Of a DNA stretch of 24,000 nucleotides, positions 17,944-23,261 are shown in pieces. Below the pieces are notes generated by a model, which was not told where the DNA came from, did not search any database, and saw only the letters and a list, made by a program, of their open reading frames with translations. The position numbers and the translations under genes are program-made. The stretch is from Candidatus Pacearchaeota archaeon (GTDB taxonomy: Archaea > Nanobdellota > Nanobdellia > Pacearchaeales > UBA284). Position 1 is the stretch's first letter, and every line of letters begins with the position of its first letter. The stretch lies in NCBI GenBank assembly GCA_026016245.1, contig CP061211.1:134353-158352 (forward strand). The letters are read 5' to 3'.

Positions 17944-18642
17944 TTATATTCTAAGATGTATCTGTTCAAAATAAGGTTTAAGTGCTTTCTGAAATTTTTT
18001 AAGCTCTTGTTTTGTATAAGGTTCTATTTTTTCATAGTGCTCGATTAGTGTGTTTTGTGGCTGGAATTGCTGTAAAGAGAATAATTTGTTTGCTTGACTT
18101 TCTTTCAGATATTGTGCTATTTCCATCAGCTTTTCTTCTGTAATGATCCCTGGCACGCAAGTAGTTCTAAACTCATAATTTTTTATTTGTTTGATGATTT
18201 CTATTGATTGTTTTATTTGCTCTATATCTATTATTCTTTGGGCGACTCTTTCATAATCATCTTGCTTTATGGTTGTTTTAATGTCCATTGCTATGTAATC
18301 CACAAGTTTGTTTTTTATTAGGGTTTGAAGCATTTCTGGATTTGAGCCATTTGTATCTATCTTAATTAGGAATCCTAGTTCTTTGATTTTCTTGCAGAAT
18401 TCTGGCAAATCATTATAGATTGTGGGCTCTCCTCCACAAATAACGACTGCATCAATGAATCTTTTTCTTTTTTCCAGATAAGAGAAAATTTCTTCTTCAG
18501 ATATTGCTGGCACTTTTTTTAGCACAAGCTGGGGATTATAACAGAAAGGGCATCTAAAATTACAGCCTTGGACAAAGATTGTTGAGGAAATTTTTTTAGG
18601 ATAATCTATTAAAGTAACTTTTTGAAAACCACCTATTATCAT
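17944..18642 (-). CDS. nrdG: Anaerobic ribonucleoside-triphosphate reductase activating protein (radical SAM)
   Basis: N-terminal GGFQKVTLIDYPKKISSTIFVQGCNFRCPFCYNP contains CxxxCxxC. GGEPT motif present. Lies 19 nt downstream of nrdD. Confidence 0.9.
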   Translation of the reverse strand: MIIGGFQKVTLIDYPKKISSTIFVQGCNFRCPFCYNPQLVLKKVPAISEEEIFSYLEKRKRFIDAVVICGGEPTIYNDLPEFCKKIKELGFLIKIDTNGSNPEMLQTLIKNKLVDYIAMDIKTTIKQDDYERVAQRIIDIEQIKQSIEIIKQIKNYEFRTTCVPGIITEEKLMEIAQYLKESQANKLFSLQQFQPQNTLIEHYEKIEPYTKQELKKFQKALKPYFEQIHLRI

Positions 18643-18661: not shown

Positions 18662-21600
18662 TTAATCTTTTATAGGGATTGTTTTAAGTGTTGTATCAAA
18701 AGTTTTTCTGTCAGTGAATTCTGTTCTCTTTCCATTGTTCCATTGATCTACTGGTCGAAGATAGCCAACAACTCTAGAATAAACCTCACACTTATTTTTG
18801 CATTGCGGGCATAGGAAATGTTGTCCAAAAAAGTAGCCATGTTTGGTACAGATGCTGAATGTTGGTGTTATAGTGAAATATGGAAGTCTAAAGTTTTCGC
18901 AAACTTTTTTTAATAGAGCCTTGATTGCTTCTTTTGATGGCATGCTCTCCCCAATAAAAGCATGAAAAACTGTTCCTCCAGTGTATTTTGTTTGTAATGG
19001 ATCCTGTAGTTCTAAAGCAAGAAAAAGATCATTAGTGTAGTTAACTGGTAGATTTGTTGAGTTAGTATAATAAGGGTCAGCCCCATTTTCCACTGCAGCA
19101 TTGTTAGCTACAATTATATCAGGAAATGCTTTTTTGTCTATCTTTGCTAATCTATAACTTGCTCCTTCAGCTGGCGTAGCTTCTAAATTGTAAAGATCAT
19201 TTGTTTCTTTTTGATATTTTATTATTTCTCCCCTCATAAAGTCAAGAACTGATTCAGCAAATTTCCTACCTCTTTCTGTTCCAATATCCAGATTAAATAA
19301 ATTCATACAAGCTTCATTCATTCCTAATAAGCCAATAGTTGAGAAATGATTCACCCAGTATTTATTATAAACTTTTTTTATTTCCCTCAAATAGAATTTT
19401 GCATAGGGATACAAGCCTCTGTCAGTAAATTCCTCAAGAACCTTTCTTTTTATTTCTAGACTTTCCTTTGCTATATTCATTAACTTTCCGAGTTTTTCAA
19501 AAAATTCTTCCTCGTTTTTTGTCAAATAACCTATCCTTGGCAAATTTATTGTTACTACTCCTATTGAATTACCGCACCAGCTAACTTTTCCATTTCTTCT
19601 AACAAAGACGGTGTGATTTTTTACTTCACAACAATAGATTTTTCCTTCATAATAAGCTTTTTTGATATTTCTTTTTCTTAGCCTATAATGTTTTGCTTTT
19701 TGAACTCCAAGAACATAAATAACCCCAGCTTTTATTTTCCTTCCTTTGATTTGAGAAACTTTTTTCTTTTGAGATATACTTGTTCCTAGCCATCCTAATT
19801 TCATAATTATTTCCTGTAAATCATCTGCTAATCTTTTAGAAGGAGTCCAATAATTTATTTGACCAGTAATTTTTCTAACATAACCATCACCTTTTACCAT
19901 CCAATCAAATAAGATTTTCAACTGTCTTTTACTTAATCTTTTAATTTCCTTTGGGATAAACTTTTCATATTTATTTCCAAATTGTCGTAAATAAGTCCAT
20001 AACTGCTTATTACAAATTACAAAATTTATTGCCCTTTCTATATAATAATTAAAAGGTAAAGAGTCTAAAACTCTTTTAATCTCTTCTTTTTTCTTTTTAT
20101 TTACTTGGCTAATCACAGTCCTATAACCATGGTTTTTAGCACTTTTTTCATTATCAGTACATCCTTCAGCTAACCAGAATCCAAAGAAGCGCAGCCAATT
20201 ATCCATCTCAATTTTTAAAGCATCTCGATACACCTTGTAAGGAGTTCTTCCCTGCCTTCCATATTTTGTAAATTTAATTCCAGGCAAAATAAACCATGTT
20301 GTCTCTTCTCCTCTCCAAATACCTTGTTTTGGGATACGTTGATTATTAAAATCAAAATCTTTTGCTTCTACAAACTTTCTTTTACCACTCCCTACTTGGT
20401 CTACTACCATTCGATGATTTGGGGTGACTAATAAATCCATGGATTTTGTTTTAAATTGGCACATTTCTCCTTTATGGTTATATTTGAAAAGTTTTTTTGG
20501 TTTATGCAATTCAATTTCATTATTCCTAACTAATGTAAATATCATTTCATTTTTGGTTAAATCTTTAAAAAGTTTCCAGCCATTTTCTGTTAAAATTTCT
20601 GTTTTTTCATCATAACAACCAGTCAAAGGATTTGCTCCGAATAATCCCCCCCCTCTTTTAACAAGCTCTCTGTTATCTAACCTTAAGCGGCAACACATAC
20701 TTCTCGCATCTTCTGGTTTCATATCACTATTAATGAAATTTGAAAAATAAGGTATACCATATTTTGCTGTCATTTCCCATATTTTGTCATATTTTGGACT
20801 GTTCCATGCAAAATCTTTTGTGATGTTGTATGTGGGAATAGGAAATGTAAATACTCTATCAACATCATCACCACCAGTATAAACTTCAGTGAGAGCCTGA
20901 TTAAAAATATCCATCTCTTCCTGGAAATCACCATAAGTTTCTTTCATTGGGTTTCCTCCTATAATTACTGGCTCGTTTCTCATGAATTCTGGCACTTTCA
21001 AATCAAGAGTTATATTTGTGAAAGGTGTATTTCCTGTTATGAATACCTTGCCATTTCTTCTTGCAATAACTGTTCCGTTTTCAGTATTAGGACACCAGAT
21101 TGTTCCTAAGTATCTTATCTTTTTGATTTTATTTATGTAAGTATCCTTGTGTTTTATCAGCCTTAGCACATAAATGGTTTTGGTTCCAATTGTTGGTTTT
21201 CTTTCTAAAATAGTTGACCCATATCCTGCATTTGATGCAATTGCCTGTAAATCATTTAAAATGTCTATGTTAGAAGTTGCAATCTTACAATTCTCAGAGC
21301 CTTCAGCTTTCAGGTAATTATCTATAAACAATTCAGACTGACGCTGGCTCATATCTAATAGAATTTTTGGAATAAAGCTAATACTTGCTTTACTGAACCA
21401 TTTATGTATTATTTTTGATGATGCAGCATTTAATCTTATTCTCTGAACTGGTTTTCCTAAGCCATGTTGAGTATATTCAGAATACTTTAATTTGAAATGT
21501 TTTAGCAATTTTTTTATTTCTTCATAATTTTTCTTGTTTTTTATTTCTGATTGATAAATACTAACTCTATAACAGCATCTGTGTTTGCCTGGTTTTTCTA

Positions 21601-22813
21601 TACTCCCTTCTCCAATTATCCATGCTATTAATTTAATTTGTTCATCACTTACTGGAATGTCTTTCTTAGAATTTTTAGCTGCTATTGGTACAATAAAATG
21701 TGATTTTAATTTTATGACTTTTTCAATTGGTTCTAAAACATAATTATTAGTATTAAATTTTTTTCTTACGACTTTATGTCTAGGGGAAATTAATTGGTCT
21801 TGTATCCTATTTTTTAAATTATACATAACCCCTTCATATTCCTTTTTAAATACACTATTTACTTTTGTGTTTTCTATCACTTTTTTTTCTATATTGAATG
21901 TTTTTATTATCATATCTTTTTTTATTTCATTATATTTTTTCCATCCATTAATAGTCAGTATTTCTGTATCTTCTGAAATACACTGAAATCCTACACGAGT
22001 TGGAACATTTACATTAAACATGAATTCCTGCAAAGCTTGTTTAACTTCTTTATAACCTAAACCATCATATCGAATAAATGGCGCTAAAAGAGTATCAAAG
22101 TTTGATAAAGCTTGGGCACCTGCAGCTTCTCCTTGAAGTGTATAGAAAAAATTAACAACTTGGCCTAAAGCTACTTTGAAGTGTTTTGCTGGTTTACTAT
22201 CTATTTTTCCATAAACACCTTTGAATCCTGTCAAAAGCAAATCTTTAAGATCCCATCCAACACAATATGGAGCAAGAACACCTAAATCATGAACATGAAA
22301 TGTTCCACTTGTGTGGGCCTCTCTTATTTCTGGGGGATAAATCTTTTTTAGCCAGTATTGTGATGTTATGAAAGAAGAGACATGATAATTAAGTCCTTGA
22401 AGAGAATAAGCCATGTTAGAATTCTCCTTGATACGCCAGTCCTGACCCGTCAGATATTCCTCTACTTTTTTTGTATTTGTCAAGAGTTCAGAAACTTTTC
22501 TTATGTCCTCGTGCTGTTTTCTGTAAAGAATGTAAGATTTGGCTGTTTCAACATAATTATTTCTCATTAAAACTCTCTCAACAACATCCTGGATACTTTC
22601 AACACTAGAGATTTGGCCAGGAGCAAGCTGGTCTTCTATTATGATAGTAACTTTATGTGCAAGAGTTTCAGCTATCCTCTTGTTTTCTATTTCATCTTTC
22701 CCAGTCTCTTTTGTAGCATTAAGTGCTTTTTCAATAGCAACAGCTATTTTTCCAAGATTGAATTCTGCGATAGAACCATCTCTTTTACGAATCTCTTTTA
22801 AAATTTTAGCCAC
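18662..22813 (-). CDS. nrdD: Anaerobic (class III) ribonucleoside-triphosphate reductase containing two inteins (715-aa mature extein)
   Basis: N-terminal ATP-cone (IRKRDGSIAEFNLGKIAVAIEKAL). Catalytic SMCCRLRLD. C-terminal Cys cluster CTKHG...CPQCKNKC. Glycyl-radical motif RVVGYLRP (Gly codon 18764-18766). The start is GTG 22813 embedded in AGGAGGTG, 10 nt after the nrdR stop. Confidence 0.95.
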   Translation of the reverse strand: MAKILKEIRKRDGSIAEFNLGKIAVAIEKALNATKETGKDEIENKRIAETLAHKVTIIIEDQLAPGQISSVESIQDVVERVLMRNNYVETAKSYILYRKQHEDIRKVSELLTNTKKVEEYLTGQDWRIKENSNMAYSLQGLNYHVSSFITSQYWLKKIYPPEIREAHTSGTFHVHDLGVLAPYCVGWDLKDLLLTGFKGVYGKIDSKPAKHFKVALGQVVNFFYTLQGEAAGAQALSNFDTLLAPFIRYDGLGYKEVKQALQEFMFNVNVPTRVGFQCISEDTEILTINGWKKYNEIKKDMIIKTFNIEKKVIENTKVNSVFKKEYEGVMYNLKNRIQDQLISPRHKVVRKKFNTNNYVLEPIEKVIKLKSHFIVPIAAKNSKKDIPVSDEQIKLIAWIIGEGSIEKPGKHRCCYRVSIYQSEIKNKKNYEEIKKLLKHFKLKYSEYTQHGLGKPVQRIRLNAASSKIIHKWFSKASISFIPKILLDMSQRQSELFIDNYLKAEGSENCKIATSNIDILNDLQAIASNAGYGSTILERKPTIGTKTIYVLRLIKHKDTYINKIKKIRYLGTIWCPNTENGTVIARRNGKVFITGNTPFTNITLDLKVPEFMRNEPVIIGGNPMKETYGDFQEEMDIFNQALTEVYTGGDDVDRVFTFPIPTYNITKDFAWNSPKYDKIWEMTAKYGIPYFSNFINSDMKPEDARSMCCRLRLDNRELVKRGGGLFGANPLTGCYDEKTEILTENGWKLFKDLTKNEMIFTLVRNNEIELHKPKKLFKYNHKGEMCQFKTKSMDLLVTPNHRMVVDQVGSGKRKFVEAKDFDFNNQRIPKQGIWRGEETTWFILPGIKFTKYGRQGRTPYKVYRDALKIEMDNWLRFFGFWLAEGCTDNEKSAKNHGYRTVISQVNKKKKEEIKRVLDSLPFNYYIERAINFVICNKQLWTYLRQFGNKYEKFIPKEIKRLSKRQLKILFDWMVKGDGYVRKITGQINYWTPSKRLADDLQEIIMKLGWLGTSISQKKKVSQIKGRKIKAGVIYVLGVQKAKHYRLRKRNIKKAYYEGKIYCCEVKNHTVFVRRNGKVSWCGNSIGVVTINLPRIGYLTKNEEEFFEKLGKLMNIAKESLEIKRKVLEEFTDRGLYPYAKFYLREIKKVYNKYWVNHFSTIGLLGMNEACMNLFNLDIGTERGRKFAESVLDFMRGEIIKYQKETNDLYNLEATPAEGASYRLAKIDKKAFPDIIVANNAAVENGADPYYTNSTNLPVNYTNDLFLALELQDPLQTKYTGGTVFHAFIGESMPSKEAIKALLKKVCENFRLPYFTITPTFSICTKHGYFFGQHFLCPQCKNKCEVYSRVVGYLRPVDQWNNGKRTEFTDRKTFDTTLKTIPIKD
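19568..20617 (-). mobile_element. nrdD intein 2 (350 aa) with a LAGLIDADG homing-endonuclease domain
   Basis: Inserted at GANPLTG|C...GN|SIGVVTINLPR. Starts CYDEKTEILTENGWK, has block B LVTPNHRM, LAGLIDADG motifs FFGFWLAEGCT and LFDWMVKGDGYV, and ends RRNGKVSWCGN with +1 Ser. Codon positions were checked on the nucleotide sequence. Confidence 0.9.
21029..21982 (-). mobile_element. nrdD intein 1 (318 aa) with a LAGLIDADG homing-endonuclease domain
   Basis: Inserted at PTRVGFQ|C...GN|TPFTNITLD. Starts CISEDTEILTINGWK, has block B LISPRHKV, LAGLIDADG motifs LIAWIIGEGSI and FIDNYLKAEGS, and ends RRNGKVFITGN with +1 Thr. Codon positions were checked on the nucleotide sequence. Confidence 0.9.
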
Positions 22814-22823
22814 CTCCTAACTG

Positions 22824-23261
22824 TTATTTTTTCCCTAACTCTTTTATTGTTTTTCTAAAATCCCCAATATCCTCAAATTCTCTATATACAGAAGCAAATC
22901 GAATATAAGCAACTTTATCAATCTTTTTCAATTTTTTCATGACCATTTCTCCTATGATTTTGCTTGGAATTTCAGGGCCATATCCCCTGATTCTTGTCTC
23001 TATCTCTGCAACAGCCTTTTCTATCGTTTCCTGACTTACAGGCCTTTTTTCGCAAGCTTTCATCATCCCTATCAAAAGCTTCTCTCTATCAAAGGGTTCT
23101 CTTCTCTCATCTTTTTTTATTACTCTCATATTTGTCTCTATCCTTTCATATGTGGTAAATCTCTTTTTACATTTCAAACATTCACGTCTTCTCCTAGTGA
23201 TGTTTTCTGTATCTCTTTTATCCAAAACTTTTGTATTTCCAGAGCAATAAGGACATTTCAT
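22824..23261 (-). CDS. nrdR: NrdR transcriptional repressor (zinc ribbon + ATP-cone)
   Basis: MKCPYCSGNTKVLDKRDTENITRRRRECLKCKKRFTTYERIE is the canonical NrdR N-terminus. It is followed by an ATP-cone (VIKKDERREPFDREKL...). Confidence 0.9.
   Translation of the reverse strand: MKCPYCSGNTKVLDKRDTENITRRRRECLKCKKRFTTYERIETNMRVIKKDERREPFDREKLLIGMMKACEKRPVSQETIEKAVAEIETRIRGYGPEIPSKIIGEMVMKKLKKIDKVAYIRFASVYREFEDIGDFRKTIKELGKK

Follow-up and report, generated by a model that had tools for sequence, protein, structure and literature searches.

A single nrdD gene interrupted by two inteins lies in a 24,000-nucleotide stretch of a Candidatus Pacearchaeota genome (contig CP061211.1, positions 134,353 to 158,352), which we call the window. 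The gene is one open reading frame (ORF) of 1383 codons plus a stop codon, with a GTG start and zero internal stops. Its product is the catalytic subunit of a class III ribonucleotide reductase (RNR): a profile search gave 603 bits for PF13597 and a match to PF03477, the N-terminal ATP-cone, and NF006126 scored 1012 bits against a cut-off of 548. The family hidden Markov models (HMMs), the glycyl-radical motif, the active-site cysteine loop and the adjoining gene for the NrdG activase all identify the protein as NrdD. The extein motifs are all intact (CVGWD, SMCCRL, the Zn-ribbon CPQCKNKC and the glycyl-radical motif RVVGY), and the extein can be aligned with the solved NrdD chains PDB 8P23, 4COI and 1H78. 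The inteins take up 668 of the 1383 codons, leaving a combined extein of 715 amino acids. An earlier note on this DNA had placed the intein boundaries at amino acids 278-595 and 733-1082, which proved exact, and the intein terminal strings that it quoted are present. The features of the locus, in window coordinates, are as follows.

18662..22813, minus strand: nrdD precursor ORF, class III RNR catalytic subunit with ATP-cone (PF13597, PF03477, NF006126)
21983..22813, minus strand: N-extein, aa 1-277, ending in PTRVGFQ; joined to the next extein piece in intein-less relatives
21029..21982, minus strand: intein 1, 318 aa (aa 278-595), allele of NrdD site 277; Cys1, block B LISPRH, end FITGN, +1 Thr; PF14528 29.1 bits
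21602-21637 and 21296-21337, minus strand: LAGLIDADG motifs of intein 1
20618..21028, minus strand: middle extein, aa 596-732, with the catalytic SMCCRL loop (nt 20684-20701) and GANPLTG; a single-piece match in relatives
19568..20617, minus strand: intein 2, 350 aa (aa 733-1082), allele of NrdD site 414; Cys1, block B VTPNH, end SWCGN, +1 Ser; PF14528 34.8 bits
20159-20194 and 19880-19921, minus strand: LAGLIDADG motifs of intein 2
18662..19567, minus strand: C-extein (aa 1083-1383 and the stop codon), bearing the Zn ribbon and the glycyl-radical domain; aligned to PDB 8P23, 4COI and 1H78
22824..23261, minus strand: nrdR, 10 nt upstream of nrdD; TIGR00244 186.8 bits (cut-off 124.65)
17944..18642, minus strand: nrdG, radical-SAM activase of NrdD, directly downstream; TIGR02495 (NrdG2) 210.9 bits (cut-off 131.15)

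Intein 1 separates PTRVGFQ from TPFTN and intein 2 separates GANPLTG from SIGVV; excision of both restores both motifs. The second site lies shortly downstream of SMCCRL, as the earlier note said, but the distance from the end of that motif is 22 residues and not 20. Intein-less nrdD genes of relatives in the same genus and the same order are uninterrupted at both junctions, and their host sequence runs continuously across the two sites as PTRVGFQTPFTN and GANPLTGSIGVV. Across the junction, the gene of the same-genus genome G001 reads FNVNVPTRVGFQTPFTNITLDLT and that of G027 reads GGLFGANPLTGSIGVVTINMP; G001 and a second member of the genus, G003 (ORFs of 712 and 709 aa), are continuous as NVPTRVGFQTPFTNI. 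In G027, G036, G058 and G060 both PTRVGFQ-TPFTN and GANP(L/Q)TG-SIGVV are unbroken. The middle extein is 57-73% identical to its counterparts in relatives (50% in one partial match). Among 60 related genomes, same-genus and most same-family members carry nrdD without inteins, and inserts occur only in G059, G013 and G040. The same-order relative G059 has a site-277 allele (G059:C10:20347-22524) that is 61% identical over aa 2-732; one TAA is flagged within this match, which may reflect a decayed allele or an edge effect of the alignment.

Insertion sites were mapped by score-optimised spliced mapping together with mapping of the flanks. The ends of plain BLAST high-scoring segment pairs were rejected as boundaries because they over-extend into the inteins, the C-terminus of intein 2 being weakly similar to extein residues 384-414. 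The last 27 residues of intein 2 (aa 1056-1082, nt 19568-19651; ..YCCEV..RRNGK..GN) align weakly with the extein upstream (aa 704-732, nt 20618-20710; ..MCCRL..KRGGG..TG), a likeness that is probably due to chance. Both sites fall where the extein is most conserved: ranked among 16-residue windows, they reach the 98th and 99th percentile, and such high conservation is typical of the targets of homing endonucleases.

Allele lineages at sites 277 and 414

Spliced mapping of 221 NrdD homologues revealed insertions at about 12 extein positions (183, 229, 236, 277, 337, 372, 388, 389, 414, 550, 612 and 651). Inteins of the family to which the two window inteins belong hold sites 183, 229, 271, 277 (141 copies), 414 (108 copies), 583 and 651. 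Some NrdD inserts do not begin with Cys or Ser, such as TYYGKE...NHN followed by C at about site 183, and PL...THN followed by CRL, which at site 389 separates the two catalytic cysteines.

When the intein 1 region was searched against 5.8 billion proteins, 689 matches were found; the best 120 are all NrdD proteins, 59-78% identical to intein 1, some of about 1000-1050 aa, corresponding to one intein, and others longer. The intein 2 region gave 1223 matches, with NrdDs up to 79% identical and weaker matches in PolB, portal, GARS and glycosyltransferase proteins. Our sample contains 140 alleles at site 277 and 106 at site 414. The nearest alleles of intein 1 are those of P0004 and P0005 (about 77-79% identity) and the nearest allele of intein 2 is that of P0128 (about 79-80%). 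P0004 and P0128 are different hosts with one intein each, and in these hosts intein identity exceeds extein identity (68% and 60%) by 10-20 percentage points.

Phylogenies place the two inteins in different clades. In a FastTree analysis of 498 inteins, all 140 from site 277 fall in a single clade with intein 1 nested inside it, nearest to P0004, while intein 2 is nested among the site-414 alleles, nearest to P0128, and many inteins from other host proteins sit between the two clades. In an IQ-TREE analysis (LG+C20, 80 representatives), the Shimodaira-Hasegawa-like approximate likelihood ratio test (SH-aLRT) support was 100 for the site-277 clade and 95 for the site-414 clade. The sister of the site-414 clade in that tree is the clade of site-229 inteins (SH-aLRT 93), not that of site 277, although the full FastTree set is less clear on this point. 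An approximately unbiased (AU) test rejected a clade uniting the site-277 and site-414 inteins (p = 1.55e-5, log-likelihood difference 91.7). From this evidence it is very probable that the gene houses two independent inteins, each the local copy of a separate and widespread site-specific lineage, one at site 277 (VGFQ followed by T or C) and the other at site 414 (PLTG followed by S).

The distribution of the alleles is the pattern expected of homing elements that spread horizontally. Measured against the genomes of named species, intein 1 is closest to alleles of Aenigmatarchaeota (76-78%), followed by those of Paceibacterota and other bacteria of the candidate phyla radiation (CPR; 49-65%), whereas alleles of Woesearchaeota and Nanoarchaeota are only 42% identical; the intein 1 allele tree requires at least 3 changes of domain. 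In homing, each of the two-motif endonucleases would cleave nrdD copies that lack its intein, at the highly conserved site specific to it, and repair would copy the intein in; the uninterrupted junctions of relatives are candidate empty sites for such cleavage. Such homing by each endonuclease would explain the sporadic, cross-domain distribution.

Several points weigh against this interpretation. Because the intein sample consists of the best matches to these two inteins, NrdD hosts and relatives of intein 2 are over-represented in it. None of the trees is rooted, and quick or FastTree methods were used for the larger ones. Taxon labels of metagenome-assembled genomes (MAGs) are those of their submitters. 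Finally, the splicing models that the whole protein passes (PF14890 at 39.4 bits, cut-off 35.8; TIGR01445 at 27.6, cut-off 24.5) fall under their cut-offs when the inteins are scored alone: PF14890 gives 18.1 for intein 1 and 25.3 for intein 2, and TIGR01445 gives 22.8 and 23.7.

The same two-intein arrangement is already present in public genomes; the window inteins are ordinary new members of known lineages. Both 277 and 414 are occupied in 19 other sampled NrdDs, among them those of Thermodesulfovibrio yellowstonii (P0122; sites 229, 277 and 414), Halanaerobacter jeridensis (P0178; 277 and 414) and Desulfonema magnum (P0137), and allelic inteins at these sites are also known from Aenigmatarchaeota MAGs (L029, L031). 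The host protein and insertion points are the same as in the window; the inteins are of the same lineages (up to 78% identical for intein 1 and 79% for intein 2), have the same Gly-Asn ending and carry the same two-motif LAGLIDADG domain. The window differs from these cases in that its host is a 0.71-Mb DPANN-type archaeon whose same-genus relatives lack both inteins.

That nrdD reached this archaeon with both inteins in place is a possible but doubtful alternative. The whole gene, or an nrdR-nrdD-nrdG operon, would then have come horizontally from a donor that already bore both, with no separate homing, and any of the 19 double-intein NrdDs illustrates that such genes exist. In a FastTree phylogeny of exteins, the window sequence stands apart from its congeners in a 13-row clade (support 99) with P0004, P0005, P0150 and others, and its extein identity to members of the same genus (about 65-71%) is no higher than to distant hosts (68%). 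This grouping outside the genus suggests that the operon may indeed have been transferred. However, the extein tree was made by FastTree only and the window branch is long (0.42), and the allele closest to intein 1 and the one closest to intein 2 occur in different hosts, each with a single intein. In P0023 and P0025, which carry both, identity is 62-64% for intein 1 and 73-76% for intein 2, which indicates that the two intein histories are not in step. The GC content of intein 1 is 27.5% and that of intein 2 is 29.4%, compared with an extein value of 34.4% and a genome-wide value of 31.9%; at third codon positions the values are 19.5%, 20.6% and 23.9% for intein 1, intein 2 and extein. Compositional evidence for a recent import is weak.

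Few host proteins are as rich in inteins as the RNRs (PMC4760082), and NrdD inteins have been recorded in phages (PMC3653736). A precedent for two independent inteins in one archaeal gene is provided by haloarchaeal MCM-a and MCM-d (PMC10643990). As proposed here for nrdD, these are two homing-endonuclease inteins at nearby sites of one essential gene, each with its own target, and phylogenies in that study gave no support for co-homing. The MCM case concerns another gene and another group of organisms, and homing was demonstrated in vivo there, whereas the nrdD inteins of the window are known from their sequence. A search of the literature returned nothing usable on the InBase names of NrdD inteins (Mja RNR, Tye RNR) or on inteins in DPANN or CPR organisms. 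InBase presumably lists class III RNR inteins of M. jannaschii and T. yellowstonii.

Predicted splicing and endonuclease functions

The inserts bear the features of real inteins, intact as judged from their residues, and the earlier description holds: the gene encodes a class III RNR, and its two LAGLIDADG inteins belong to a single broad family, with the splicing nucleophiles and both acidic residues of each endonuclease retained. Each intein has a Cys1 nucleophile (Cys278 and Cys733), a block B motif of the form (S/T)-P-x-H (SPRH in intein 1, TPNH in intein 2), and a terminal Asn with a +1 nucleophile (TGN followed by T in intein 1, CGN followed by S in intein 2). These residues are conserved throughout the alleles. 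At site 277, C1, H69 and the G-N ending are found in 140 of 140 sequences; at site 414, C1, H68 and the terminal Asn are found in 106 of 106, and G-N is likewise invariant. The +1 residue is T in 105 and C in 35 of the site-277 hosts, and S in all 106 at site 414. Each intein has two LAGLIDADG helices ending in an acidic residue and Gly (IIGEG and LKAEG in intein 1, WLAEG and VKGDG in intein 2). The acidic residues are present in 138 and 136 of the 140 site-277 alleles (97-99%) and in 103 and 101 of the 106 site-414 alleles (95-97%), and PF14528 exceeds its cut-off of 22.5 for each intein scored alone. By these features both inteins appear to be class 1 inteins bearing a two-motif LAGLIDADG domain. 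The retained acidic residues are consistent with active endonucleases and are not proof of them; we infer both splicing and endonuclease activity for the two inteins.

Splicing would begin in the 1383-aa precursor with an N-S acyl shift at the Cys1 of each intein, followed by transesterification to the +1 Thr (intein 1) or the +1 Ser (intein 2). Cyclisation of the terminal Asn and an O-N shift would then yield the 715-aa NrdD, which NrdG would activate.

The penultimate residue (block G:6) is Gly in both inteins in place of the usual His, and intein 1 lacks the block F His. Cys occupies a position like F:4 in both (C297 and C329; Ser replaces it in 31 of the 140 site-277 alleles), and intein 2 also has Cys at G:5. 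The Gly-Asn ending is not a sign of decay, since it is the family norm: among 498 full-length members that were extracted, 471 end in GN and 2 in HN. The penultimate His assists splicing and is not strictly required (PMC4031507), and splicing in its absence is on record (PMC4031507 ref. 74; PMC5050341). The gp51 intein of mycobacteriophage Bethlehem, in which the penultimate residue is Gly, splices completely, and a Gly-to-His change slows it (PMC5050341). This intein of a recombination directionality factor (RDF) resembles the window inteins in being class 1, with Cys1 and penultimate Gly; unlike theirs, its host protein is that of a phage. Among class 1 inteins, Cys is a common variant at the F:4-like position (PMC4031507). 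The block F Cys led us to consider class 3 inteins, which have no N-terminal nucleophile and carry a Trp-Cys-Thr triplet; that class was ruled out because Cys1 is present in both inteins.

The model of intein 1, the one intein for which an AlphaFold prediction was made, has a predicted local distance difference test (pLDDT) score of 91.8 and a predicted TM-score (pTM) of 0.89, and on this model intein 1 has the HINT fold. Foldseek matched it to the TliVMA intein 7QSU (E 4e-15, TM-score 0.69) and to PI-PfuI 1DQ3 (TM-score 0.72; both query-normalised); it also matches PI-SceI and PI-PkoII, and its endonuclease domain matches I-DmoI. A profile of 21 family members matches PI-PkoII (2CW7) with E 1e-11. 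Searches of PDB sequences by phmmer gave no match for either intein alone, nor for the 137-aa middle extein. The window inteins resemble PI-PfuI (the Pyrococcus furiosus RNR intein, 1DQ3), TliVMA and PhoVMA (7QSU, 7QSS, 7QST), PI-PkoII (2CW7) and PI-SceI (1VDE) in having a HINT domain with a nested two-motif LAGLIDADG endonuclease (for the intein 1 model, TM-scores 0.69-0.72, E 1e-13 to 4e-15), but those solved inteins are only 9-14% identical and occur in other host proteins and at other sites.

A role for the inteins beyond selfish propagation is improbable. They could be redox-conditional switches of splicing, keeping the oxygen-sensitive NrdD inactive until conditions become reducing; the idea draws on the Cys-rich active sites (Cys1 and the F:4-like Cys in each intein, and the G:5 Cys of intein 2) and on the stronger conservation of the closest alleles relative to the exteins of their hosts.

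The view that the inteins have decayed and no longer splice, leaving nrdD dead, is very improbable. Gly in place of the penultimate His, the missing block F His of intein 1 and the low scores of lone inteins with the splicing HMMs would fit it. An intein-free class II, B12-dependent NrdJ with an ATP-cone lies elsewhere in the genome (G000:C1:539475-541610, minus strand; TIGR02504 721 bits), and NrdD is therefore not the sole source of deoxynucleoside triphosphates, which NrdJ would supply if nrdD were dead. Against decay stand the 1383-codon frame, unbroken in a genome of 32% GC, the nucleophiles and block B residues kept in both inteins and invariant over 140 and 106 alleles, the efficient splicing of the Gly-Asn-ending intein that has been tested (PMC5050341), the intact catalytic motifs of the extein, and the nrdG and nrdR genes that adjoin nrdD.

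Kinship of the two inteins

The earlier note had concluded from their terminal motifs that the two inteins are clearly related. Homology itself stands: BLASTP aligns them over their full length at 28% identity (93 bits, E 5e-26), and phmmer gives 68 bits. Close kinship does not, the two falling in separate clades, and no significant similarity was found between them at the DNA level (best E 0.035). Their resemblance is that of members of one very large Gly-Asn-ending family, now established at many sites and in many proteins. When cluster representatives were scanned exhaustively, 10,748 proved to be related to intein 2; 2045 of these, in proteins of every length, reach E <= 1e-30, and all 2045 would outrank intein 1 (68 bits) as relatives of intein 2. 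The site-229 NrdD inteins, many inteins of other proteins and an intein elsewhere in the same genome are likewise closer to intein 2 than intein 1 is. For the site-414 and site-229 lineages, the sister relationship in the IQ-TREE phylogeny suggests that an earlier switch of site inside nrdD may have separated that pair.

The third intein of the family encoded in this genome lies outside the window, in an endonuclease Q (EndoQ)-like PHP protein (G000:C1:422293-423381, minus strand). The open frame of the host protein spans 421624-423960, and the intein ends in VWCGN followed by S. It is 43% identical to intein 2 over the full length (E 3e-71), with 72% DNA identity over the first 207 nt.

It is hence extremely unlikely that, as the earlier note proposed, one intein duplicated into a second site of the same gene and that inteins 1 and 2 are each other's closest relatives: besides full-length homology, that proposal can appeal to the common motifs (C..E.TEILT.NGWK at the N-terminus, RRNGK....GN at the C-terminus), but these are family-wide, each intein has alleles of its own site elsewhere that are 77-80% identical, and the joint clade is rejected. 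Duplication is not supported because each intein belongs to a different site-specific allele clade, a grouping that the earlier note had named in advance as the one that would speak against it.

As a discovery, two independent inteins in this nrdD carry little weight, RNR genes being already known as intein-rich. Their use lies elsewhere. For annotation, those sampled homologues in which a site-277 allele is the only intein (about 1000-1050 aa) show no Pfam intein domain in precomputed annotations. For the study of gene flow, the close alleles in DPANN archaea and CPR bacteria are a marker of exchange between ultra-small organisms. For method, the lesson is that motif likeness between two inteins in one gene is no proof of duplication within it.

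The genome itself is a single contig of 710,724 bp, and its small-subunit rRNA scores 1299 bits with the archaeal model versus 1012 bits with the bacterial one. A regulator of the NrdR family, scoring above the TIGR00244 cut-off, is present in this archaeal genome.

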